Source of the DNA: Actinomycetota bacterium
GTDB taxonomy: Bacteria > Actinomycetota > Actinomycetes > S36-B12 > CAIYMF01
DNA: 64,000 bases
NCBI GenBank assembly: GCA_947455705.1
Contig: CANGPO010000002.1
Coordinates: forward strand, 63,170-127,169
Direction: 5' to 3'
Shown here: positions 42,379 to 54,115 of the stretch, in pieces
How positions within the stretch are numbered: the first letter of the stretch is position 1
Layout of the letters: every line of letters begins with the position of its first letter
Translations under genes and position numbers: made by a program
Notes under the pieces: model-generated
What the model saw: only the letters and a program-made list of their open reading frames with translations
Databases searched by the model: none
What the model was told of the DNA's origin: nothing

Positions 42379-42984
42379 ATGTTTCGCCGCAACAAGAGCA
42401 ACGAGTCCGAGGCCACTGAGCCAGTGGTCGATCCCAACCTGCCTGCCGACCAGCAGCCGAAGGGAAAGCCCACCCCATCTCGTAAGGAGGCCGAGGCCGC
42501 TCGAAAGGCTGCCCTGGCAGGTGCGGCCGATCCCAAGGCGGCTAGGAACTCCAGCCGCGAGGCCCGGGCGCAAGAGCGTGAGGCATCGCGAGCGGCACTG
42601 ATGAGTGGGGATCTCAAGCGGCTCCCACCCCGTGACGCCGGCCCCGTTAAGGCATATGTTCGCGACTTCATTGACAGCCGCCTCAGCGTGGGCGAGCTAT
42701 TCATCCCAGTGGCGCTGGCCGTTCTACTGCTGGGCTTCCTCAAGGTGGACTGGGTTCAGTTACTTCTCATCTACATCTGGATCTTCATGCTCTTGGGCGT
42801 CGTTCTGGACGGCCTGTGGATCTGGTACAAACTCAAGCGCGACATCGCCGCGAAGTTCCCCAATGAGGACGCAAGCGGATCGACGTTCTACGGAATCATG
42901 CGCGCACTTCAATTGCGTCGATTCCGTTTACCTCCGCCCCGCGTTGGATTGGGTGGGAAGCCTGCCAAGCGTCGGCGTCGATAA
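42379..42984 (+). CDS. DUF3043 membrane protein
   Basis: KGKPTPSRKEA, LPPRDAGP, RDFIDSR, FYGIMRALQLRRFRLPPPRV. Confidence 0.9.
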   Translation: MFRRNKSNESEATEPVVDPNLPADQQPKGKPTPSRKEAEAARKAALAGAADPKAARNSSREARAQEREASRAALMSGDLKRLPPRDAGPVKAYVRDFIDSRLSVGELFIPVALAVLLLGFLKVDWVQLLLIYIWIFMLLGVVLDGLWIWYKLKRDIAAKFPNEDASGSTFYGIMRALQLRRFRLPPPRVGLGGKPAKRRRR

Positions 42985-43038: not shown

Positions 43039-44037
43039 ATGCAGCATAGATTTCTCGGACACAGTGGCCTAAAGATCAGTGAGATTTCGTACGGTAACTG
43101 GGTTACCCACGGCTCTCAGGTCGAAGAAGATGCAGCCACCGCCTGCGTCAATGTCGCCCTCGATCATGGCGTGACGACGTTCGATACAGCCGACGTTTAT
43201 GCCGGTACTCGAGCCGAAGAGATTCTTGGCCGAGCCCTGAAAGGTCAGCGGCGAGAGGGTTTGGAAATTTTCACCAAGGTCTACTGGCCGACTGGTGAAG
43301 GCCCCAACGATCGCGGGCTCTCTCGTAAGCACATCATGGAGAGCATCAACGGCTCTCTGCGTCGGCTGCAGACCGATTACGTCGATCTCTACCAAGCGCA
43401 TCGTTTCGACTACGAGACACCTCTTGAAGAGACCCTGCGTGCATTCGACGACATCCTCCGCTCTGGCAAAGCGTTGTACATCGGCGTCTCGGAATGGAGC
43501 GCGGAGGAGATTCGCCGCGCCAACGACATCGCCGACGTGATGGGCTTCGATCACTTCATTTCCAATCAGCCCCAGTACTCGATGCTGTACCGAGTCATCG
43601 AGGCTGAGGTTGTGCCCACCTGTGACGAGTTGGGGATGAGCCAAATCGTCTGGAGTCCGATCGCGCAGGGAATTTTGACGGGTAAGTACCTTCCCGGTCA
43701 GCCACCACCCGCCGGATCGCGCGCCACCGATCCGACCAGCGCGCACTTCACTGAGGGACTGCGCACGGACGAGATCCTCACCGCCGTCCAAAACCTTCGT
43801 CCGCTCGCCGAGCAAGCCGGCCTGACGATGGCTCAACTGGCCGTGGCGTGGGTTCTCCAACATCCGTTCATTGCATCGGCCATCGTCGGTGCGAGCCGTC
43901 CCGAGCAATTGGTAGACAACCTTGGGGCCGTTGGAGTGACGCTGGAAGCCGATCTCATGTCAGCGATCGACGACGTTCTGGCCGATGTAATCGTTCGCGA
44001 CCCGCGTTTGACCGTCTCACCGAAACCGAGGGCCTAG
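43039..44037 (+). CDS. Aldo/keto reductase (Kv-beta-like)
   Basis: FDTADVY, IFTK, DLYQAH, IGVSEW, QPQYS and IVGASRPEQL motifs. Confidence 0.94.
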   Translation: MQHRFLGHSGLKISEISYGNWVTHGSQVEEDAATACVNVALDHGVTTFDTADVYAGTRAEEILGRALKGQRREGLEIFTKVYWPTGEGPNDRGLSRKHIMESINGSLRRLQTDYVDLYQAHRFDYETPLEETLRAFDDILRSGKALYIGVSEWSAEEIRRANDIADVMGFDHFISNQPQYSMLYRVIEAEVVPTCDELGMSQIVWSPIAQGILTGKYLPGQPPPAGSRATDPTSAHFTEGLRTDEILTAVQNLRPLAEQAGLTMAQLAVAWVLQHPFIASAIVGASRPEQLVDNLGAVGVTLEADLMSAIDDVLADVIVRDPRLTVSPKPRA

Positions 44038-44039
44038 CC

Positions 44040-44267
44040 ATGACAACCTACGGAACGTGGACATGGAGCTACCAGAACACAGCTGGTGACACAGTCGAAT
44101 CGAGCGTCACGTCACCATCGTTTCCAAACCAATCCGATGCAGAAAGTTGGATTGGTGAGACATGGGCCGAACTGCTCGCCGACGGTGTCGACGCTGTTTC
44201 ACTGTTGGAAGACGCGCGCATCGTCTATGGCCCGATGAGCCTTCATCCGGCCACCCCAGCGCAGTAA
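44040..44267 (+). CDS. Small conserved hypothetical protein (75 aa)
   Basis: ATG 2 nt after the AKR stop; FPNQSDAESWIGETWAELLADGV...YGPMSL pattern. C-terminal part of track ORF 43848..44267. Confidence 0.75.
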   Translation: MTTYGTWTWSYQNTAGDTVESSVTSPSFPNQSDAESWIGETWAELLADGVDAVSLLEDARIVYGPMSLHPATPAQ

Positions 44268-44349
44268 GAGCACGCCACGCCGCAATAACCGCGACACCTT
44301 TGACATGCGGCCGGTCGCCGTGGTGCAGTAGCCCTACAAGTAAATAACT

Positions 44350-44472
44350 GCGTTCGATGTCCAGGGGAAGCCGGTCCAAGTCCGGCGCTGACCCGCAACC
44401 GTAGGCCGAGACTGCTCGGCGAGCCGGAATGCCTGGCGGGCGCGAGAGGCTCCACCGTCGAGGAATACGGTC
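44350..44472 (+). ncRNA. Cobalamin riboswitch
   Basis: CCAGG-GGAA-GCCGG(tccaagt)CCGGC-GCTGACCCGCAACCGTAG-GCCGAG(actg)CTCGGC-GAGCCGGAATG-CCTGG (B12 box), then hairpin ACCGT-CGAGGAAT-ACGGT; lies upstream of B12 genes. 5' boundary approximate. Confidence 0.93.
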
Positions 44473-44507
44473 ATGGGCCCGGACCTTCCTTGGTTTCGTT
44501 CATCTCG

Positions 44508-44558
44508 CCCCTCGTTTCCGATCTGATCTGTCAGATCACAACGGGGGGTTTTGTCTTT
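44508..44558 (+). terminator. Intrinsic terminator in the riboswitch expression platform
   Basis: Outer CCCCTCGTT/AACGGGGGG, inner GATCTGA/TCAGATC, then TTTTGTCTTT, 52 nt before the start codon. Confidence 0.75.
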
Positions 44559-44610
44559 CGAGGAGCAGTCCGGCCACCTGGTCGTGAACCGCTAACCCGA
44601 AAGGCACTCA

Positions 44611-45975
44611 GTGTTTTCAGTACGCAAGAGATCGTCTGCTGCGTTCTCAGCCGCAATCATCGCCCTCGGCATATTTGGCAGTTGGACTAGCGCACCGGTC
44701 TCTGCGGCCCCCGCACCTCACTACGGCTTGTTCGGCAAAAGCGATCCCACATACGACGGCGTGTATCGCCAGTCTTTGGCGATCCTCGGACTTAAGTCCG
44801 CGGGCCGAACCGTGCCATCGGCTGCGGCATCCTGGCTTGTCCACCAGCAGTGCACAGATGGCGGTTTCCAGCCCGTGCGCACCACATCATCAACTGCATG
44901 CACCGCGTCTGATGCCGCCGGCTACGTGGGCGAGGACAGCAATTCAACCGCAGCAGCAGCCGCTGCTCTGCATGACTTGGGCTATGTCACTGAGGCAACG
45001 AAGGCATTGAATTGGCTCAAGGCCATGCAAAACCCAGATGGCGGCTTCCCTTGGTTCGTCGGCGGCCAATCAGATGCCAATTCCACAGCCTTAGCCCTTT
45101 TGGCAAACAAGGCTGCTGGAGTTTCAGCTGCTCAGTTGACGAAGAATGGTCACACTCCAACGGATTTCCTCCGGTCGCTGCAAGTTCTCTGCACCGGAAG
45201 CGATACCAACGATCGCGGGGGCTTTGCTTATGAGGATTTTGGAACTGGGCTTGTGGCGAACGACTCAGCAACGGTCTCCGCGGTTCTAGCTCTCACCGGG
45301 CAAACACTGCATGTAGTAAGCCGCCCAGCGTCGACCGCTCTCTCAACGCTCACCTGCGTCAGTGGTCAGCCAGCGAGTTACAGCCCGACGATTGTCGGAG
45401 CGGGTTACATTTCTCGACTGCTGGTTAAGTACGCCGGTGCAGTTCCACAATTCGATTACACGAATTCGGTGCGCCTCGCTGGTTCGAAGTCACTGGGCGA
45501 CACCGCATGGGCGGCTCTCGCACTATCGGCTTCTGGCGTGGGCTCGTCGCAGTTGAACAAGGTCGTTGCAGTACTGCGAGCGAACGAATCGGCTTCCTAC
45601 TCCGATCCTGGGTTGGAGGGACTCTTCCTGCTTGTGTACCGGGCTACGAATCAGCCCGCCTCGCTCAGATCCCGCTTGGCTGATCACTTGGCTTCTCTGG
45701 TTCGTCGACCGTTGGCCACCAATCAGGTGCGTCCGAGCATTAGCGGCACACCCACGGTCGGTCGTCGCGTGACCTGCGCCGCCGGCACCTGGACCAATAG
45801 CCCTACGTTGAGCATCACGTGGTTCCGATCAGGATCACAAAAGGTGCAGGGGACGGGTGCGACGTATCTGGTCCGCACTGCCGACAAAAGCACATCTCTG
45901 CGATGCGTAGTAAAGGCCACCACGACGTCTGGCACTACCACGGCAGTGTCCAAATCCCGACGAGTGACCGCCTAG
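44611..45975 (+). CDS. Secreted alpha/alpha-barrel (prenyltransferase/squalene-oxidase repeat) protein with C-terminal Ig-like domain; putative corrinoid-binding protein
   Basis: Signal peptide, three QW-like repeats (QQCTDGGF, MQNPDGGF, LQ...DRGGF), DSNST/DANST helices, Ig-like tail (PSISGTPTVG...GTW...W.R...ATY); first gene after the B12 riboswitch. Confidence 0.8.
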   Translation: MFSVRKRSSAAFSAAIIALGIFGSWTSAPVSAAPAPHYGLFGKSDPTYDGVYRQSLAILGLKSAGRTVPSAAASWLVHQQCTDGGFQPVRTTSSTACTASDAAGYVGEDSNSTAAAAAALHDLGYVTEATKALNWLKAMQNPDGGFPWFVGGQSDANSTALALLANKAAGVSAAQLTKNGHTPTDFLRSLQVLCTGSDTNDRGGFAYEDFGTGLVANDSATVSAVLALTGQTLHVVSRPASTALSTLTCVSGQPASYSPTIVGAGYISRLLVKYAGAVPQFDYTNSVRLAGSKSLGDTAWAALALSASGVGSSQLNKVVAVLRANESASYSDPGLEGLFLLVYRATNQPASLRSRLADHLASLVRRPLATNQVRPSISGTPTVGRRVTCAAGTWTNSPTLSITWFRSGSQKVQGTGATYLVRTADKSTSLRCVVKATTTSGTTTAVSKSRRVTA

Positions 45976-46027
45976 CGGCAGACTCGCACGACGAACAGCC
46001 GACGATAATGAAGGAGGGACAAGGGAT

Positions 46028-47002
46028 ATGAAGCGCCTCATTGCCACGTTCATTCTCATGTCCCTGATGTCGATCATCGCTGCGTTCATGGCGCCGCAGC
46101 AGGCGTCGGCAACTTCATATCGGTATTGGACCTACTGGTGGGGACGGCCGGGGCAAGCAGCCTGGCAGTACGCTCCCCTCGGGCCAGGCGGCGATGTTCC
46201 CGGTGATGGCTGGGTGCTCGGGTGGAGATACCAAACGACCAGCGCCAACGGAGCAGGGGCTCAACCTCCACGCGCGTCAGCGAACTTCGGGGACCTCTGC
46301 CCAGCTGCGACACCCGCATCGGGGCTAGAGCGCGTCGCGGCGGTCGTCGATTACGGCGATGCTCAGGATGCCCCCCAGGGGCAGAACACTCCCTCGGGAC
46401 GAGTCGAGTGCACCGAGGTCCCTATCCAGAGCCATGGCTCTGCTGTCATGCGGGCTGCGGGAATCTCTTTGCGCTCCCTCAACGGTTTCATCTGTGGGAT
46501 CGACGGCTACCCCATCGTGGGATGTGCAACCCCGGTGGCTACCGCCCCCAGTCCAACGTCGTCACCGACTACGAGTTCGAAGCCCACGACTCCCACTCCG
46601 AAACCAACACCAACATCCACCAAATCCAACGTGCCGGTGTCGGGAGCCTCGCGATCAGCAACACCAAGCCGCACCACATCGTCGGCCTCAGCGACAGCAT
46701 CGATGTCAGCAAGCCCGCCAGCAACACCGAGCCCGTCTATAACTGCCATTGCATCGACGGGTGGAACACTCGCACCTGTCGTGACACCAAGTACTGCGGT
46801 TATCGCTGCGTCGAACCCAGCGTCCGCGCAGCCCACACCGGCGACAGCCACACCCACTCCCCCGGGAACGACCATCGCATCACAGGCCGCGCCGGTTACC
46901 GAGTCTAGAAACGCGTTCGGCCTCATCATCGGCATTCTGGGCATAGCCCTACTTGGTGGTTCGGCGTTCTACACCTCCCGTCGACGCGGTGGTGGACGAT
47001 GA
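46028..47002 (+). CDS. SCO2322-family exported protein with Ser/Thr/Pro stalk and C-terminal TM anchor; putative corrinoid-binding beta-domain
   Basis: Signal peptide, YRYWTYW...WQYAPLGP...PGDGWVLGWRY, RVAAVVDYG, GFICGIDGYP..GC, long S/T/P linker, TM helix plus RRRGGGR tail. Confidence 0.8.
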   Translation: MKRLIATFILMSLMSIIAAFMAPQQASATSYRYWTYWWGRPGQAAWQYAPLGPGGDVPGDGWVLGWRYQTTSANGAGAQPPRASANFGDLCPAATPASGLERVAAVVDYGDAQDAPQGQNTPSGRVECTEVPIQSHGSAVMRAAGISLRSLNGFICGIDGYPIVGCATPVATAPSPTSSPTTSSKPTTPTPKPTPTSTKSNVPVSGASRSATPSRTTSSASATASMSASPPATPSPSITAIASTGGTLAPVVTPSTAVIAASNPASAQPTPATATPTPPGTTIASQAAPVTESRNAFGLIIGILGIALLGGSAFYTSRRRGGGR

Positions 47003-48150
47003 CCGCAGAACACGCGCTTGGATCGCAAGCGATCCCACGCTGGACTCATCCGGTGGCCTGGTGGGCATGGGCCTTGGGACTTGTCGCCTGCGTTAGCCGC
47101 ACAACCAACCCAATTCTTCTTGGACTGATCGTCGCAGTGGCCGGATGGGTTGTGGCCCGGCGTAAGCCAGACGCCCCCTGGGCAAACTCGTTCTCGCTGT
47201 TTCTACGTCTGGGCTTCATCGTGATGGCCATTCGTGTTGTCGTGGCCATGATTCTCGGCGGTGGAATTGGCGACCACGTACTGTTCACGCTGCCACGTAT
47301 TCAACTCCCCGATTGGGTTGCTGGGATTACCATCGGCGGCCCCGTCACCGCCGAAGCACTGCTCACAGCACTGTACGAAGGTGCAGTCATCGCAGCGATT
47401 CTTGCCTGCATCGGCGCGGCGAATTCACTGGCGAGCCCAGCGCGCTTACTGGCGACCGTACCTGCGGCTCTGTACGAAGTCGGTGTATCCATCGTTGTGG
47501 CACTTTCCTTTGCACCGCAACTGGTTGCCGACGTGAGCCGAGTTCGCACAGCACGACGACTACGTGGCCGACCCGATCGCGGCGCGCGCGCCTTAGCTGG
47601 CTCGGCCATTCCCGTCTTCGAAGGTGCCCTTGAGCGCGCGGTCGATCTCGCTGCAGCGATGGACTCACGTGGCTACGGACGAACTCGGCCGATGAAGCAA
47701 CGCGATGAATTCGTCGCCCGTGCCCTGGTAGTCATCTCGTTGATCGCACTGAGTATTGGTGTCTACGCCCTCGTCGACGGAGTCGACGGCGGCTGGGGAT
47801 CGTGGCTTTTCATAGTTCTCGGGCTCATCTGCGCGATCGTCGGTCTGCGGATTGCCGGGCGACGCTCCATTCGCACGCGCTACCGTCCCGATCCGTGGGC
47901 ACTTCCCGAATGGATTGTTACGCTCAGCGGTTGGATCCCCGCTGTCATTTTCGTCGCGGTGGCCCTTAACGATCCAGTCTCACTGGCCGGCCAGACATCA
48001 CCATTGCAGTGGCCATCCCTACCCGTGATTCCGACGATCGCCATCCTGGTGGCAGCCCTTCCCGGTATGGTCACACCGCTGCCACCTGGTGGCGGATCGG
48101 CGCCTACTGGCCCAGCTAGCGACATCCGACGTCAGGAGGTGCGATCGTGA
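46999..48150 (+). CDS. ecfT: ECF transporter T component
   Basis: HPVAWWAW, two Arg motifs (ARRLRG, AMDSRG), multiple TM helices; ATGA overlap. Confidence 0.9.
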   Translation: MTAEHALGSQAIPRWTHPVAWWAWALGLVACVSRTTNPILLGLIVAVAGWVVARRKPDAPWANSFSLFLRLGFIVMAIRVVVAMILGGGIGDHVLFTLPRIQLPDWVAGITIGGPVTAEALLTALYEGAVIAAILACIGAANSLASPARLLATVPAALYEVGVSIVVALSFAPQLVADVSRVRTARRLRGRPDRGARALAGSAIPVFEGALERAVDLAAAMDSRGYGRTRPMKQRDEFVARALVVISLIALSIGVYALVDGVDGGWGSWLFIVLGLICAIVGLRIAGRRSIRTRYRPDPWALPEWIVTLSGWIPAVIFVAVALNDPVSLAGQTSPLQWPSLPVIPTIAILVAALPGMVTPLPPGGGSAPTGPASDIRRQEVRS

Positions 48151-49763
48151 TCACCTTCGATGACGTAAGCATCACCTACAGCGGTGCCGCGGAGCCTGTC
48201 CTGGCCAACGTTAATCTGACCATCCCAGAAGGTGAACTGGTTCTCGTTGTTGGCCGAACCGGGTCAGGTAAGTCGACGCTTCTCAAATGCGTGAACGGCT
48301 TGGTACCGCACTTCACCGGCGGCACTTTGCGTGGCCGCGTCACAGTTGCGGGCCGAGATACACGCACCCATCCCCCACGGGAGTTGGCTGATGTCGTCGG
48401 CATCGTTCCACAAGACCCCATGAGCGGATTTGTCACTGACGTCGTCGAAGACGAACTCGCTTACGGCATGGAATCACTTGGTTTAGCTCCTGACGTCATG
48501 CGTCGACGGGTGGAAGAAACCCTTGATCTGCTTGGCTTGGCGCATCTTCGCAACCGGGCGCTGCTATCACTGTCCGGTGGCGAGCGTCAGCGAGTTGCGA
48601 TTGGCGCAGTTCTCACAACACATCCATCTGTTCTCGTCCTCGACGAACCCACCTCAGCCCTTGACCCGGGCGCTGCAGAGGAGGTCCTCGCCGCACTTCA
48701 ACGGCTTGTCCATGATTTGGGCGTCACGGTCTTGCTGGCCGAGCACAGACTCGAACGGGTTGTGCAATATGCAGATCGAGTCATCGTCGTTGGTGGAGCT
48801 GGTGAACCTATTCGTATGGGGACACCTGACGAAATCATGATTGACGCACCCGTTGCTCCTCCCGTGGTCGAGCTTGGGCGGCTAGCCGGCTGGGATCCAC
48901 TACCGCTATCTGTTCGCGACGCCCGACGCTGTGCGACCCCACTGCGTGAACGTCTTGAGCCGTTCGTCGCATCAATCAGTGGCGAACTCAACGTGTACGG
49001 AGATCAAGCATTCTCGATGTCCGATGCGATCGTTCGCCATGGTCATACGCTGGCATTGCGCGGAGTTTCGATCACCGCTCACGCAGGTGAAATCGTCGCT
49101 GTCATGGGACGTAATGGTGCCGGCAAGTCAACACTGCTCGGCACCCTCGTCGGATTACACGGCCTGAATGGTGGAACCGCCATCGTCGGTAACGCAGCGC
49201 CTGCATCACTTCGCGGACGTGACCTCGTAACCCGGGTCGGGCTGGTCCCTCAGGATCCGACGCACCTTCTCGTGGCCGATAGCGTTCACGATGAATGCAT
49301 TGCCACCGATCGCGATTGCGGCCTTCCGGTCGGTACCACGCGTCAAACCCTCGACAGTCTGGCACCCGGTATCGCTGACGACATGCATCCGCGTGACCTA
49401 TCCGAGGGGCAGCGCTTGGCTTTGGCACTGGCGATCGTGCTCGCGGCGGATCCGCCGATCGTTCTACTCGATGAGCCAACACGCGGCCTGGACTATCCGG
49501 CCAAGCAACAACTAGTTTCGATCCTGCAATCCCTTGCGCATGAAGGCCGTTGCGTCCTTCTGGCCACCCATGACGTCGAACTCGCGGCCGATGTTGCAAC
49601 TCGTGTGATCGTGCTCGCCGACGGCGAAATTGTTGCCGATGGCCCTGCACCCGATGTCGTCATTGGCTCGCCGATGTTCGCACCACAAGTAAGTAAAGTG
49701 CTCTCACCTCAACCCTGGTTGACAGTTGCGCAAGTCGCTCGAGCACTTGAGCCGGCATCGTGA
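48147..49763 (+). CDS. ecfA: ECF transporter duplicated ATPase (A-A')
   Basis: Two cassettes: GRTGSGKST/LSGGERQR/LDEPT and GRNGAGKST/LSEGQR/LDEPT. Confidence 0.93.
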   Translation: MITFDDVSITYSGAAEPVLANVNLTIPEGELVLVVGRTGSGKSTLLKCVNGLVPHFTGGTLRGRVTVAGRDTRTHPPRELADVVGIVPQDPMSGFVTDVVEDELAYGMESLGLAPDVMRRRVEETLDLLGLAHLRNRALLSLSGGERQRVAIGAVLTTHPSVLVLDEPTSALDPGAAEEVLAALQRLVHDLGVTVLLAEHRLERVVQYADRVIVVGGAGEPIRMGTPDEIMIDAPVAPPVVELGRLAGWDPLPLSVRDARRCATPLRERLEPFVASISGELNVYGDQAFSMSDAIVRHGHTLALRGVSITAHAGEIVAVMGRNGAGKSTLLGTLVGLHGLNGGTAIVGNAAPASLRGRDLVTRVGLVPQDPTHLLVADSVHDECIATDRDCGLPVGTTRQTLDSLAPGIADDMHPRDLSEGQRLALALAIVLAADPPIVLLDEPTRGLDYPAKQQLVSILQSLAHEGRCVLLATHDVELAADVATRVIVLADGEIVADGPAPDVVIGSPMFAPQVSKVLSPQPWLTVAQVARALEPAS

Positions 49764-50629
49764 CGTCAACGATCGTCCACGTTGAGCCAGCCACGACGAC
49801 GCGTCAATCCGTGCACATTGGCCGACGTACAGGTATCGCTCTCGCCGCGGCATCTTTTTTCGGACTCTTTGCTTTCCTATGGCCACTGATTGGTGCGGCA
49901 GACTCGACCGCGATCACGCATGCGTCGGAAACCCCGTGGCTGTTCGCAGTACTGCTTCCGTTAGTGATTGCAGTCGTTCTCGCCGATATGGCTGACGGCG
50001 GATTGGATGCCAAAGGGATCGCGCTCATCGGGGTGCTGTCTGCTGTCGCCGCGGCCCTGCGGCCATTCGGGGGTGGGCATGCCGGCTTCGAACCCATGTG
50101 GATCGTCATCATCCTCGGTGGTCGAGTGCTGGGGCCCGGTGCCGGATTTGGGATCGGCGCAATCGGCATGTTTGCCTCCGCCCTTCTCACCGGTGGTGTC
50201 GGCCCGTGGCTCGCATTTCAGATGATCGCTGCCGGCTGGGTTGGTCTCGGCGCGGGCCTACTCCCACGGGCAAAAGGAAAGTCTGAACTTGTGTTACTCA
50301 CCATCTACGGCGCCGTCGCCTGCATCGCTTACGGATTCTTACTGAACCTGTGGTTCTGGCCTACCGTCACGGTTTCGGGAAGTCTGCCGGCAGCCATCAG
50401 CTTCGTTCCTGGCGCCGGCTTCATCATCAATCTGCGGCACTGGCTGGCATTCTGCGTTGCAACGTCTCTGGGCTTCGACATTCCACGTGCGATCCTGACC
50501 GCCGTCCTGATCATCGTGGCGGGACGACCCATCCTTAATGCGCTGCGACGAGCCTCACGACGTGCAGCATTCGACGTACCCGTTTCGTTCGTCTCTCCGC
50601 AGCTATCGCCGTCTGCACCACGTCACTAG
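49760..50629 (+). CDS. cbrT: ECF S component, CbrT-like (cobalamin)
   Basis: AALRPF, GPWLAFQMIAAGWVG, FDIPRA pattern; riboswitch-controlled context. Confidence 0.82.
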   Translation: MTSTIVHVEPATTTRQSVHIGRRTGIALAAASFFGLFAFLWPLIGAADSTAITHASETPWLFAVLLPLVIAVVLADMADGGLDAKGIALIGVLSAVAAALRPFGGGHAGFEPMWIVIILGGRVLGPGAGFGIGAIGMFASALLTGGVGPWLAFQMIAAGWVGLGAGLLPRAKGKSELVLLTIYGAVACIAYGFLLNLWFWPTVTVSGSLPAAISFVPGAGFIINLRHWLAFCVATSLGFDIPRAILTAVLIIVAGRPILNALRRASRRAAFDVPVSFVSPQLSPSAPRH

Positions 50630-50644
50630 CTGACCGTTCACGCT

Positions 50645-52063
50645 ATGGACATCACCGTTCTTGGAACCGGGTCAGCTGACGGCTGGCCGAACCCATGGTG
50701 TTCGTGTATGACATGCGCGTGGGCCAGAAGTAACAACGAACTCCGCGAGCCAACGGCGCTATTGATTGATCAGCGGCTTCTCATCGACTTTGGGCCGACG
50801 GTGGGGGGTGCGGCAGAACGCGCTGGCGTTAGCCTGATCGACGTCGACACAGTCTTGATCACCCATGCACATTTCGATCATCTAGCTCCACAGCATCTCT
50901 TAACGCGTTCGTGGATCAAAGCCGATAAACCACTTCGCATCATTGGCCCCGTCAGTGTGATGAATGCGATTGAACACTGGATCGGTCCAAACGATCCAGT
51001 GACTCTGCATCCGATAGCCGCGGGTCAGATCATCGAGTTAGACGGGCAGTTGACGGGAACGACTGTGCGCGCATTGGCATCGTCGCACTTCGATGGCGCC
51101 GACGCGCTGGGTGCTGATGCGGTGTTGTTTGACGTTACGACGGCTGACGGTAAGCGTCTGCTCTACGCGACCGACACGGGCCCACTGCCGCAGGTATGTG
51201 TTGAGGCAGTGCGCAATGCCGAATTCGATGTCGCGTTCATCGAGGAAACCTTTGGCCATCACACCAATCACATGACTGGCCATCTCGACCTAGCTACGTT
51301 TCCTGAAGAGCTTGAGCGACTTCGTTTAGTGAATGCAATCACCAGCAACACCCACGTCATTGCCGTACATCTGTCACATCACAATCCACCAGGTGACTTA
51401 CTGTCTGAACAGTTGGCGCAGTGGGGTGTGCACATCGTTACTGATGGAACTCAACTTTCGATCCCACCGGTGGTACAGGGGACGCATTCAACATGGGAGA
51501 AGCTGTTGTCGAACCCACCTCGGCGCACACTCGTCACGGGCGGTGCGCGATCTGGAAAATCACAACGCGCCGAAGCACTTCTCGCCGATGTGACGAACGT
51601 CCGCTACATCGCCACCAGTGGTTCTCGCAGCGATGATTCAGATTGGATGCAGCGAGTTGCTATCCATCAGGGCCGGCGCCCGTCAACCTGGCTCACGGTG
51701 GAAACCCTCGACCTCGTCGGCGAACTATCCAAAGATGATCCGCGACCGATCTTGATCGACTGCCTATCTCTCTGGTTGACCGGCACGATGGATCGTTATC
51801 AGATCTGGGAAACCACCTCGCAATCAGCACAACGACAGCATGCCCTTGCAGCGATAGAGGCTGACGTGTCCGCCCTCGTCGAGGCGGTCCGCAACGTCCA
51901 GGTCGACACGGTGATCGTTACGAATGAGGTAGGTAGCGGGATCGTGCCCGAACATGAGTCGGGCCGACTATTCCGCGATCTACTCGGGCGATTGAACGCA
52001 CATGTGGCAGCCTCATGTGATGAGGTTGAGTTAGTTGTCGCCGGACGGGTGATCACACTATGA
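50645..52063 (+). CDS. cobU: Fusion: PhnP-like metallo-beta-lactamase-fold phosphodiesterase (about aa 1-285) + CobU adenosylcobinamide kinase/guanylyltransferase
   Basis: GTGSADGWPNPWCSCMTC, THAHFDH, ATDTG, HLSH; then TLVTGGARSGKS, YIAT, RVAIHQGRR, LIDCLSLW, VTNEVGSGIVP and LNAHVA. Confidence 0.92.
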   Translation: MDITVLGTGSADGWPNPWCSCMTCAWARSNNELREPTALLIDQRLLIDFGPTVGGAAERAGVSLIDVDTVLITHAHFDHLAPQHLLTRSWIKADKPLRIIGPVSVMNAIEHWIGPNDPVTLHPIAAGQIIELDGQLTGTTVRALASSHFDGADALGADAVLFDVTTADGKRLLYATDTGPLPQVCVEAVRNAEFDVAFIEETFGHHTNHMTGHLDLATFPEELERLRLVNAITSNTHVIAVHLSHHNPPGDLLSEQLAQWGVHIVTDGTQLSIPPVVQGTHSTWEKLLSNPPRRTLVTGGARSGKSQRAEALLADVTNVRYIATSGSRSDDSDWMQRVAIHQGRRPSTWLTVETLDLVGELSKDDPRPILIDCLSLWLTGTMDRYQIWETTSQSAQRQHALAAIEADVSALVEAVRNVQVDTVIVTNEVGSGIVPEHESGRLFRDLLGRLNAHVAASCDEVELVVAGRVITL

Positions 52064-53211
52064 ATGAGGGGCCTGACGTGGCTGGCTTAGAGCCGATCGA
52101 CATCCCAGATCTGTGCAGCCGGATCGAGCGTCCCGATCACACGTTTGTGAATGCCGCCAAGCAACGACAGGAAACCCTCACCAAACCCAGCGGTGCCCTT
52201 GGCAAACTCGAGGACTTGTCCGCATGGCTGTGTTCGGTTCAAGGTCAATGCCCGCCTCGACCACTAGATCGAGTCCGCGTTGTCATCTTTGCTGGCGATC
52301 ATGGGATCGCACGGACCGCGCAGACCAGCGCCTACCCACCCGAGGTCACCGCGCAGATGGTGATGAACTTCATCGCCGGTGGGGCGGCAGTTAACGTACT
52401 TGCACGACAAAACAACGCGTCGGTACGCATCGTCGACATGTCGGTCGATGCCGACTACGAAGCACTGGGCATGGCCGTCCCCGACGACGTCACCCGCTAC
52501 AAGGTGCGTCGATCCTCAGGATCAATCGATCGCGAGGATGCGCTTACGTACGAGCAGGCACAGCAAGCATTTGCAGCGGGGGTGGCAGTCGCCAACGAAG
52601 AGATCGACGCTGGAGTCGACCTCTTGATTCCCGGCGATATGGGTATCGGAAACACCACCCCGGCAAGCACCATCATCGCGCTCTACACAAATCTCGATGC
52701 TGCCTCGGCTGTCGGGCGCGGAACCGGTATCGATGACCTGACCTGGATGCGTAAGACCGCTGCCGTGCGCGATGCGATGCGTAGGGCGAAGCCGATCAAA
52801 GCCGACCCCATGAAACTCCTTGCCGCAGTGGGCGGAGCCGATATCGCAGCTATGACGGGTTTCTTGATGGGTGCATCTGCTCGCAAGACTCCGGTGCTGC
52901 TGGACGGGATCGTTTCAACCGCCGCCGGTTTACTGGCCCAGCGACTCACTTATCGATCCACTGAATGGTGGCAGGCCGGCCACCGCTCAACTGAACCCGC
53001 ACAGCAAAAGGCACTCGACCAATTCCCCTTGGTGCCCATCGTCGATTACGAGCTGCGTCTCGGCGAAGGAACGGGTGCACTCATTGCACTGCCAGTCTTG
53101 CGCGCAGCAGGAAATACCTTGCGCGAGATGTCCACGTTCACGCAAGCCGGAGTTTCCAATCGCGGCAGCGCAATGGAAGATTCTCCCGACGCTGCTCCCA
53201 TCGAGCTCTGA
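52060..53211 (+). CDS. cobT: Nicotinate-nucleotide-dimethylbenzimidazole phosphoribosyltransferase
   Basis: TKPSGALGKLE, FAGDHG, GDMGIGNTT, GGADIAA and LRLGEGTG. Confidence 0.96.
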   Translation: MNEGPDVAGLEPIDIPDLCSRIERPDHTFVNAAKQRQETLTKPSGALGKLEDLSAWLCSVQGQCPPRPLDRVRVVIFAGDHGIARTAQTSAYPPEVTAQMVMNFIAGGAAVNVLARQNNASVRIVDMSVDADYEALGMAVPDDVTRYKVRRSSGSIDREDALTYEQAQQAFAAGVAVANEEIDAGVDLLIPGDMGIGNTTPASTIIALYTNLDAASAVGRGTGIDDLTWMRKTAAVRDAMRRAKPIKADPMKLLAAVGGADIAAMTGFLMGASARKTPVLLDGIVSTAAGLLAQRLTYRSTEWWQAGHRSTEPAQQKALDQFPLVPIVDYELRLGEGTGALIALPVLRAAGNTLREMSTFTQAGVSNRGSAMEDSPDAAPIEL

Positions 53212-53219
53212 CCGCATCC

Positions 53220-54032
53220 ATGCCAGATTCGATCCGTCTCGCCTTCGGCACCCTGACCCGCCTTCCGGTCCCAGCGCCTCGCAGCGTTGACCGGAACACC
53301 GCACGTGGAGCAATGATTCTCGCTCCACTGGTTGGCCTGCTCCTTGGTGGAATTGCCGTGGTCGTCCTCGACGCAGTACGCGTGCTTGCAGCGAACGATC
53401 ATGCAAAATCTCTGGTCGATCTCTTGGCAGCGACGCTAGCTATCGCAGTCTTGGCGTTCATGACTCGCGGATTACATCTCGATGGTCTGGCCGACACCTT
53501 TGATGCTCTCGGAGTCAAAGGGCCGAACAACGACGCCATTCGCACCAAGCGGCTCGCGGTGATGCGGTCACCCGAGATCGGCGCTTTCGGCGTCATTGCT
53601 GTCGTGTTGTGCCTGCTCATTCAAATCGCGGCACTCGCGACCTGCGTCGCGACGGGTCTTGGCTCATTTGGCTTGCTCACCGCCGCGATGGCGTCCCGTC
53701 TCGCACTCACCTTGAGTTGCCGACCCGGGGTCACGTCTGCGCGACCTGATGGCCTTGGGGCTGCTGTCGCCGGCAGCGTGCCAACCGCGATCGGAGCCAT
53801 CGTTGCGCTGGTGACGGTGGGAACGGCCGTTGTCTTCGGGCGACTTGATGACGATGCAAGCCTGCGGACGGTCATCGCCCTTGGCGCGTCGGTCCTGGTT
53901 GCGATCGCGGTCGGGCAACTTTCGCTTCGCTTTTTCACCCGCACCTTCGGCGGTCTGACCGGAGATGTCTTGGGTGCCGTTACTGAAATCTCGATGATGG
54001 CTGCCCTACTCACGACGGCGTTTATCTTCTGA
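53220..54032 (+). CDS. cobS: Cobalamin synthase
   Basis: TLTRLP, TRGLHLDGLADTFD, MRSPEIGAFG and GGLTGDVLGA. Confidence 0.95.
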   Translation: MPDSIRLAFGTLTRLPVPAPRSVDRNTARGAMILAPLVGLLLGGIAVVVLDAVRVLAANDHAKSLVDLLAATLAIAVLAFMTRGLHLDGLADTFDALGVKGPNNDAIRTKRLAVMRSPEIGAFGVIAVVLCLLIQIAALATCVATGLGSFGLLTAAMASRLALTLSCRPGVTSARPDGLGAAVAGSVPTAIGAIVALVTVGTAVVFGRLDDDASLRTVIALGASVLVAIAVGQLSLRFFTRTFGGLTGDVLGAVTEISMMAALLTTAFIF

Positions 54033-54061
54033 GAAGAGTCGCAAGCACGTCTGCTCGGGGG

Positions 54062-54099
54062 CAGGCGAACGACGATTTCCACCGGCAGTTCGCCTGTTT
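54062..54099 (+). terminator. Terminator after cobS
   Basis: CAGGCGAAC/GTTCGCCTG stem (long loop) followed by TTT. Confidence 0.6.
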
Positions 54100-54115
54100 G
54101 TGACTCAGTTCACCG
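54098..54115. promoter_or_regulatory. Rex/CRP-type box 1 upstream of the small membrane protein
   Basis: TTGTGAC-TCAG-TTCACCG. Confidence 0.55.

Follow-up and report, generated by a model that had tools for sequence, protein, structure and literature searches.

A cobalamin riboswitch operon combining predicted corrinoid capture, import and nucleotide-loop assembly in an actinobacterium lacking genes for corrin-ring synthesis

We describe here an eight-gene operon, headed by a cobalamin riboswitch, in a 64 000-nucleotide stretch of DNA from an Actinomycetota bacterium (assembly GCA_947455705.1, contig CANGPO010000002.1, positions 63 170 to 127 169 of the forward strand; this whole stretch is called the window below), which can be set beside several systems already in the literature. 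In freshwater Actinobacteria of the acI group, which have no B12 biosynthesis, an energy-coupling factor (ECF) module lies behind cobalamin/adenosylcobalamin (AdoCbl) riboswitches and is a putative cobalamin transporter (Kang et al. 2017, PMC5301498). For surface proteins with SLBB and α/α-toroid domains, encoded in CbiO/CbiQ operons of Gram-positive bacteria, chiefly low-GC, that do not produce B12, a part in the scavenging of B12 or B12 precursors has been predicted (Burroughs et al. 2007, PMC1796856), and an ECF operon of Lactobacillus sakei that also encodes exported toroid and β-domain proteins has been linked to haem (Verplaetse et al. 2019, bioRxiv 10.1101/864751). The ECF-CbrT transporter of Lactobacillus delbrueckii, a B12 auxotroph without BtuCDF, moves both cobalamin and cobinamide (Santos et al. 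2018, PMC5997447). Finally, CbiR of Akkermansia muciniphila, a phosphodiesterase encoded among cobU, cobT and cobS, opens the nucleotide loop to give cobinamide phosphate (Cbi-P) and α-ribazole, and the cobamide is then rebuilt (Mok et al. 2020, PMC7733943).

The locus has in common with the acI genomes (PMC5301498) the riboswitch–ECF module in Actinobacteria that do not make B12; in its passages on this module that paper describes the ECF module only, and the surface proteins, the fusion of a metallo-β-lactamase (MBL)-fold domain to CobU, and the cobT–cobS pair are additions of the present operon. With the systems of Burroughs et al. (PMC1796856) it shares exported or anchored toroid and small β-rich proteins encoded together with an ECF-type ATPase and T component, and the exported, riboswitch-led and ECF-linked context of genes 1 and 2 fits their scavenging prediction, although the SCO2322 domain found here gives no DUF4430, SLBB or transcobalamin match in profile and fold searches and the toroid is no nearer to PF01122 than to terpene cyclases. 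CbrT relies on a shared ECF module without surface partners; the ECF transporter of this operon is dedicated and has two such partners, and the S components show no detectable similarity. The Streptomyces SCO2321–SCO2325 type of cluster (NF053823, NF040672, PF28005), for which our literature search returned no functional study, matches genes 1–5 in content and order and also follows a cobalamin riboswitch, but stops after the S gene, while here the five genes are joined to cobU, cobT and cobS. Loop opening, the activity of CbiR, is also the one that we propose for the MBL domain, but the two folds are unrelated, CbiR being an AP endonuclease 2 TIM barrel and the domain studied here having a PhnP-like MBL fold. 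Escherichia coli PhnP (3g1p, TIGR03307) has the binuclear-metal ligands and the general-acid histidine in common with this domain, as well as the Cys3-His zinc site, and differs in that here there is a fusion to CobU and no phn context. The overall logic of the operon was already predicted in 2007 and 2017, and its value lies in its parts rather than in the concept.

We consider it likely that this is a B12-repressed operon for the acquisition and completion of corrinoids in a cobamide-dependent organism unable to build the corrin ring. This view draws on the gene content, the riboswitch, the absent biosynthetic pathway and the conserved layout of the locus. The riboswitch occupies a 343-nucleotide gap between the end of the upstream open reading frame (ORF) at 44267 and the GTG at 44611 that starts gene 1 (Table 1). 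Its Rfam score is marginal, only just above the gathering score of the family (clan CL00101), and it was therefore checked independently in an alignment of 15 related loci with upstream DNA, in which covariation was counted over 23 predicted pairs. The aptamer core GGGAAGCCGGTCCGAATCCGGCGCTGACCCGCAACCGTAGG ... GAGCCGGA..ACCTGGCG lies 5' of the first gene in all 15 loci, compensatory changes are seen in 6 of the 23 pairs, and four of these loci also pass the Rfam thresholds independently, as does the locus in Streptomyces. On this comparative evidence we regard the riboswitch as genuine, despite its marginal score. A loose regular expression for the aptamer core proved unspecific (156 matches in 1.57 Mb) and was replaced by the alignment and covariation counts; matches to this unspecific pattern also occur 1.2–2.2 kb 5' of MBL-CobU in Prescottella and Mycolicibacter loci (L004:7764, L023:8807, L024:8741, L033:8746 and L049:8791). 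A TTGACA box resembling a −35 element, at 44300–44305, overlaps the annotated 5' end of the riboswitch, and a CTTTGAC box is common to eight loci of the alignment. On the 3' side of the aptamer, folding gives a hairpin at 44508–44548 followed by UUUUGUCUUUC, which looks like an attenuator terminator and is the predicted expression platform for switching the operon off.

The eight ORFs are all on the same strand, and the junctions between them are, in order, a gap of 52 nucleotides, ATGA, GTGA and GTGA overlaps of start and stop codons, a gap of 15 nucleotides, a further ATGA overlap, and a gap of 8 nucleotides. After cobS comes a terminator-like hairpin with a UUUGUG tail, to which a simple terminator scan was blind on account of its long loop, and a scan for promoter-like sites found none inside the operon. 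We infer that the eight genes are co-transcribed and repressed by B12. In a preliminary description of this DNA, made from the sequence alone, the locus had been presented as one compact unit of eight co-oriented genes between a riboswitch and a terminator; the Rfam match, the ORF list, the conserved aptamer core and the tight junctions all agree with this, the hairpin after cobS supplies the terminator, and the listed junctions were reproduced exactly. The start given there, 44350, does fall in the riboswitch, but the riboswitch begins about 55 nucleotides earlier.

Table 1. Features of the operon, with positions in the window and the matches or calculations on which each assignment is based
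Feature	Position	Strand	Basis
Cobalamin riboswitch aptamer	44295..44454	+	Rfam RF00174, 33.8 bits (gathering score 31.5)
Leader hairpin with U tract, resembling an intrinsic terminator	44508..44559	+	Fold −26.2 kcal/mol, z = −3.3
Gene 1, secreted α/α-toroid protein (SCO2321-like), no anchor	44611..45975	+	Signal peptide; PF00432/PF13249; NF053823, 200 bits
Gene 2, SCO2322-family (PF28005) domain, Pro/Thr/Ser stalk of ~130 aa and C-terminal membrane anchor	46028..47002	+	NF040672, 121.7 bits
Gene 3, ECF T component (CbiQ family) with extra C-terminal membrane region	46999..48150	+	PF02361, 37.4 bits; hydropathy profile
Gene 4, fused A–A' ECF ATPase, two ATP-binding cassette (ABC) domains	48147..49763	+	PF00005 twice; TIGR04520 and TIGR04521, ~290–298 bits
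Gene 5, ECF S component	49760..50629	+	PF12822, 39.9 bits
Gene 6, PhnP-like MBL-fold domain (~residues 1–282, 50645–51490) fused to CobU (residues 295–471)	50645..52063	+	PF12706 and PF02283
Gene 7, CobT, nicotinate mononucleotide:base phosphoribosyltransferase	52060..53211	+	TIGR03160, 393 bits (cut-off 319)
Gene 8, CobS, cobamide synthase	53220..54032	+	PF02654, 148.6 bits (cut-off 23.2); TIGR00317, 104.7 bits (cut-off 110)
Terminator-like hairpin after cobS, UUUGUG tail	about 54036..54106	+	Fold −33.9 kcal/mol, z = −3.2; not flagged by simple scan

The assembly to which the window belongs (2.98 Mb, 97.7% complete) was taken as the genome. No CbiB, no BluB and no corrin methylase was found in it, the only two TP_methylase genes encoding a 536-aa CysG/HemD-type fusion and RsmI. 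There is also no CbiZ (PF01955); with respect to CbiR, the candidate in gene 6 has the MBL fold and not AP_endonuc_2, and CbiR homologues elsewhere in the genome were not searched for. A BluB candidate on contig C36 (71.7 bits, against a cut-off of 150) proved to be the nitroreductase half of an FbiB-like protein of 454 aa and was rejected. An apparent second riboswitch (C92:6776-6975, 21.4 bits) was also rejected, since it lies inside an ORF of 1236 aa resembling 2-oxoglutarate dehydrogenase; this leaves one real cobalamin riboswitch in the assembly, that of the operon. CbiB is likewise missing from every member of a set of 41 genomes from 14 genera, made up of this genome, 24 congeneric genomes and 16 others from the order, and on this gene content the predicted auxotrophy is a trait of the whole lineage. 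The view of the organism as salvage-only, put forward in the preliminary description, is borne out by these searches, which revealed no full de novo pathway elsewhere in the genome. Since CbiB is absent, cobyric acid would be unusable by the cell, and since BluB is absent, the lower base must come from outside; the statement that the organism rebuilds its own cobamide therefore requires an externally supplied base. As to the need for cobamides, five ORFs have B12-binding domains; two of these encode mutase proteins (a small subunit and a mutase of 660 aa), and the remaining three a corrinoid protein, a KamE-like protein and a CarH-like regulator. No ORF of MetH size with such a domain was seen in the genome. 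A PduO-type adenosyltransferase is encoded outside the operon. Contigs C149 (1732-2070), C7 (17935-18309) and C14 (4085-4297) encode a corrinoid protein of 243 aa, of the type that partners methyltransferases, together with a lysine-5,6-aminomutase-β-like protein and a MerR/CarH-like regulator containing a B12-binding domain.

The sequence of events that we propose is as follows. When intracellular AdoCbl is low, the riboswitch would permit read-through of the leader terminator, and the two surface proteins, a secreted α/α toroid and an SCO2322 domain on a long membrane-anchored stalk, would be exported, where they probably concentrate corrinoids at the wall and hand them on. The dedicated ECF transporter, composed of T, fused A–A' and S components, would import the corrinoid, and the PduO-type enzyme encoded elsewhere would adenosylate it inside the cell. 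CobU would phosphorylate and guanylylate cobinamide, CobT would activate the externally supplied lower base, and CobS would join the two parts. The PhnP-like hydrolase would act somewhere in nucleotide-loop chemistry, our preferred guess being that it opens the loop of an imported cobamide and so provides cobinamide phosphate for the CobU to which it is fused. In this scheme the nature of the substrate that is imported, and the parts played by the surface proteins and the hydrolase domain, are inferred from the observations set out here.

The protein encoded by gene 1 scores below the cut-off of 300 bits for SCO2321_fam (NF053823) because its C-terminus differs. In its AlphaFold2 model the predicted local distance difference test (pLDDT) score exceeds 90 over residues 50–365, and the model confirms a toroid fold, while the C-terminal ~90 aa are poorly modelled; homologues have C-terminal transmembrane segments or LPXTG/LAETG anchors in place of this tail. 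Four cysteines are invariant in the alignment of the family. The top 50 Foldseek matches of the toroid in the PDB are class II terpene cyclases, prenyltransferase β subunits and C3d-type domains, and among 50 members of the toroid family 49 match Prenyltrans/SQHop models and 43 match TED_complement, compared with a single match to Cobalamin_bind (PF01122), at E 0.033. Gene 2 passes the SCO2322_fam cut-off of 85 bits, and PF28005 is present in all of its homologues; the protein has a signal peptide and a transmembrane segment at 296–314, and its domain of about 140 aa (residues 30–170) is modelled with pLDDT above 90. No DUF4430 profile match was obtained in the 47 members of the SCO2322 family, although a circularly permuted relative could escape both profile and fold tests. 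The idea that the exported pair represents the two halves of a bacterial transcobalamin is not confirmed by these tests, there being no specific link of the toroid to PF01122 and neither a PDB nor a DUF4430 match for the SCO2322 domain, and we keep it as a functional analogy only. An apparent toroid–SCO2322 fusion (P0197, 730 aa, from a metagenome contig) was discarded as a read-through gene call, having an arginine-rich middle that looks out of frame and, after it, another signal peptide. The products of genes 1 and 2 are both exported and have conserved cysteines, and their genes always come first behind the riboswitch and are nearly always followed by the ECF genes; this genomic context is the basis on which we suggest that they are probably extracellular corrinoid binders.

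Genes 3–5 have the constitution of a dedicated (group I) ECF transporter, with the T component, two ATPase domains and the S component encoded in adjacent, overlapping genes. Gene 5 matches only the generic PF12822 model, and its family has no characterized member. No FecCD/BtuC-type permease is encoded anywhere in the genome and, as there is also no second real cobalamin riboswitch in the assembly, the ECF system is the sole candidate corrinoid importer found. The preliminary description had called the module CbrT-type; this label describes an expected function and not membership of a family, given that gene 5 has no detectable similarity to CbrT by single-sequence phmmer or by profile.

The CobU half of gene 6 is complete (PF02283, 171.6 bits, profile positions 1–167), with the P-loop GGARSGKS and His341 invariant, although its score of 158.7 bits against NF004469 is just below the cut-off of 161. 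The closest PDB relative of the MBL half is PhnP (3g1p), with E 2e-7 over the full length of the domain. Across 18 diverse MBL-CobU fusions the invariant residues are Cys19, Cys21 and Cys24, the HxHxDH motif at 74–79, His148, Asp177, His213, His242 and His245; the metal ligands, general-acid histidine and Cys3-His zinc site of PhnP align with these and, because they are invariant in all 18 fusions, the domain looks catalytically intact. With a TIGR03307 score of 44.2 bits, against a cut-off of 272, it does not qualify as a PhnP equivalog, and its neighbourhood contains no phn genes. Nor is the domain confined to fusions with CobU: stand-alone forms of 260–290 aa are common, and in two clusters of 585–612 aa (P0358 and P0359) it is fused, in place of CobU, to a divergent CobT-like domain, which carries an internal deletion and shares 31–33% identity with gene 7. 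A Blastococcus metagenome-assembled genome (MAG), which is CbiB-positive, has a stand-alone MBL of 278 aa (L053:9995-10831), 49% identical and directly 3' of a DUF3043 gene, with no recognizable CobU on its 3' side. In the CbiB-positive Rhodococcus sp. ARC_M6 (L012:7220-11320), genes for a BtuF-like protein, a FecCD permease and an ABC ATPase lead straight into MBL-CobU, so that the fusion is tied to two unrelated classes of importer, the ECF type here and the BtuF/FecCD/ATPase type in Rhodococcus.

A CbiR-like role for the MBL domain would fit the fusion, because its product, Cbi-P, would directly feed the attached guanylyltransferase, and the links to importers fit too. By analogy with CbiR we propose, tentatively, that the domain opens the loop of imported cobamides and so serves in remodelling; the removal of foreign lower ligands, assumed in the preliminary description, is likewise a guess. 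The fuller proposal is speculative: the MBL domain on CobU would join CbiZ and CbiR as a third class of cobamide-remodelling enzyme, evolved independently of both, opening the loop of foreign cobamides such as cyanobacterial pseudocobalamin and passing Cbi-P to the fused guanylyltransferase, in cells whose ECF transporter is fed by two extracellular capture proteins. A number of results count against our interpretation of the operon and its parts. The toroid of gene 1 is nearer to terpene cyclases than to any known B12 binder; the SCO2322 domain of gene 2 gave no match in a fold search of the PDB (best E 1.9); and gene 5, compared with all solved S components, CbrT included, gave no match at E ≤ 10, either alone (phmmer) or as a 20-sequence profile. 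The MBL-CobU fusion occurs just as often in producers that have CbiB, such as Streptomyces, Frankia and Rhodococcus, as in salvagers. In a sister family within the same order the equivalent operon encodes a plain CobU, and the genome yielded no MBL homologue at E ≤ 1e-20, from which it follows that the domain is neither specific to salvagers nor indispensable. A literature search found nothing on PhnP-type enzymes acting on cobamides or on the MBL-CobU fusion.

The same distribution bears on a different role for the domain, in a core step of loop assembly, the likeliest being a CobC-type dephosphorylation of AdoCbl-5'-phosphate or α-ribazole-5'-phosphate. With CobU, CobT and CobS present, the CobC step is the sole loop step without a gene among the eight of the operon (the genome was not surveyed for CobC, histidine-phosphatase paralogues being too many). 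Such a role would also account for retention of the fusion in CbiB-positive Streptomyces, Frankia, Rhodococcus and Gordonia, and for the fusions of the MBL domain to CobT-like proteins, whose product is the substrate of the phosphatase. The natural substrate of PhnP, a 5-phospho-α-ribosyl compound, points in the same direction. Nevertheless, PhnP-type MBL enzymes are phosphodiesterases and not monoesterases, fusion to CobU better suits a product that CobU itself uses, and the sister-family operon without an MBL homologue shows that the step, if this is what the domain does, is dispensable or replaceable. We judge a CobC-like role unlikely, and remodelling only slightly less so; the considerable probability that remains falls to some further function of the domain.

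The MBL-CobU fusion is widespread (2297 database matches), the groups represented including Nanopelagicales, Nocardioidaceae, Frankia, Rhodococcus, Prescottella, Gordonia, Nocardia, Mycolicibacter and Streptomyces, and the closest relatives of the operon as a whole are Nanopelagicales MAGs. A tblastn survey of layouts at 80 loci found the full eight-gene order in six Nanopelagicales MAGs, together with several truncated contigs, and the cultured Longivirga aurantiaca, which has no CbiB, carries an identical eight-gene operon. Nocardioidaceae, including the cultured Nocardioides iriomotensis, have genes 2–6 and gene 8 without cobT; a relative of the same order and another family (G073, L085:7574-14221) has genes 2–5 followed by a plain CobU, CobT and CobS; and at two loci (L083 and L084) genes 1 and 2 adjoin CobU-CobT-CobS, with no ECF genes detected within the 19-kb region. 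In Streptomyces spinoverrucosus the five uptake genes, of the SCO2321-25 type, stand on their own behind a cobalamin riboswitch, and in Streptomyces MBL-CobU and CobT lie elsewhere, near a DUF3043 gene, in agreement with the separation of the transporter cluster from cobU, cobT and cobS that the preliminary description had given for S. coelicolor. A putative DUF3043 gene is also found 5' in the window (42379-42984), as are DUF3043 genes in Longivirga and in Blastococcus, and DUF3043 adjoins MBL or MBL-CobU in Streptomyces and Blastococcus, which suggests that the DUF3043 neighbourhood is an old conserved locus. The window ORFs at 42379-42984 and 43039-44037 match, by position and length, the DUF3043 gene and the aldo-keto reductase gene 5' of the Longivirga operon.

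The joined layout is present in at least two separate families, and the simplest history, judged from these gene orders, would be that a riboswitch-led uptake module became joined onto an ancestral MBL-CobU-CobT-CobS locus. CbiB is missing from 16 of the 18 genomes with the fused operon and from 4 of the 15 without it (Fisher p = 4e-4, a value that ignores shared ancestry), and to this extent the joining of the modules is informative, as had been thought. Alternatively, the eight genes might form two transcription units, the uptake genes being controlled by the riboswitch and cobU-cobT-cobS being expressed from an internal promoter. The modules are separate in Streptomyces, the MBL-CobU-CobT-(CobS) arrangement near DUF3043 looks ancestral, and the 15-nucleotide gap before gene 6 has no obvious ribosome-binding site. 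However, from gene 2 onwards no gap exceeds 15 nucleotides and four junctions overlap, the promoter scan found no candidate, and the order is kept across families, all of which make a second unit improbable in our view.

The position of the S gene, directly 5' of cobU-cobT-cobS, raises the question of whether the ECF transporter might import not a corrinoid but the lower ligand or α-ribazole, in the manner of CblT. Without BluB the base must be external, and gene 5 is unlike CbrT. Against this, no other corrinoid importer was found in the genome, which has no FecCD permease and no other riboswitch; the five-gene cluster stands alone behind its riboswitch in a Streptomyces; and a pair of large surface proteins makes better sense for a large, scarce ligand than for a small base, which is probably membrane-permeant. 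Import of the lower ligand is very improbable. That the system carries cobalt or nickel, like CbiMNQO, or haem, like the L. sakei system (Lsa1836-1840), is scarcely credible, for although the T and A components match CbiQ- and CbiO-type models, cobalt ECF systems are often under the control of B12 riboswitches, and the L. sakei operon likewise pairs its ECF genes with exported toroid and β-domain proteins, cobalt for B12 synthesis would be pointless without a corrin pathway, the S component belongs to PF12822 and not to CbiM, and a B12 riboswitch and cobUTS in one unit indicate corrinoids.

The reading of the locus as a B12-repressed operon for corrinoid acquisition and completion gives a setting to three conserved proteins that have no experimental record, namely the toroid of gene 1 (SCO2321-like), the stalk protein of gene 2 (SCO2322 family) and the PhnP-like part of gene 6. 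Capture, import and completion would here be packed behind a single B12 sensor in a lineage without a biosynthetic pathway. Among microbes with a need for B12 most are non-producers, and which corrinoid is converted by whom shapes aquatic and soil communities. The same operon in cultured Longivirga aurantiaca makes two points testable: the use of extracellular helpers by an ECF transporter, and the existence of an unrecognized remodelling or loop-finishing enzyme. If the proposed roles of the first two genes are correct, this would be an ECF importer fed by two dedicated extracellular capture proteins, unlike the textbook ECF systems; and if the MBL domain does remodel cobamides, many Actinomycetes, abundant lake bacteria among them, would be converters of cobamides and not simple consumers.

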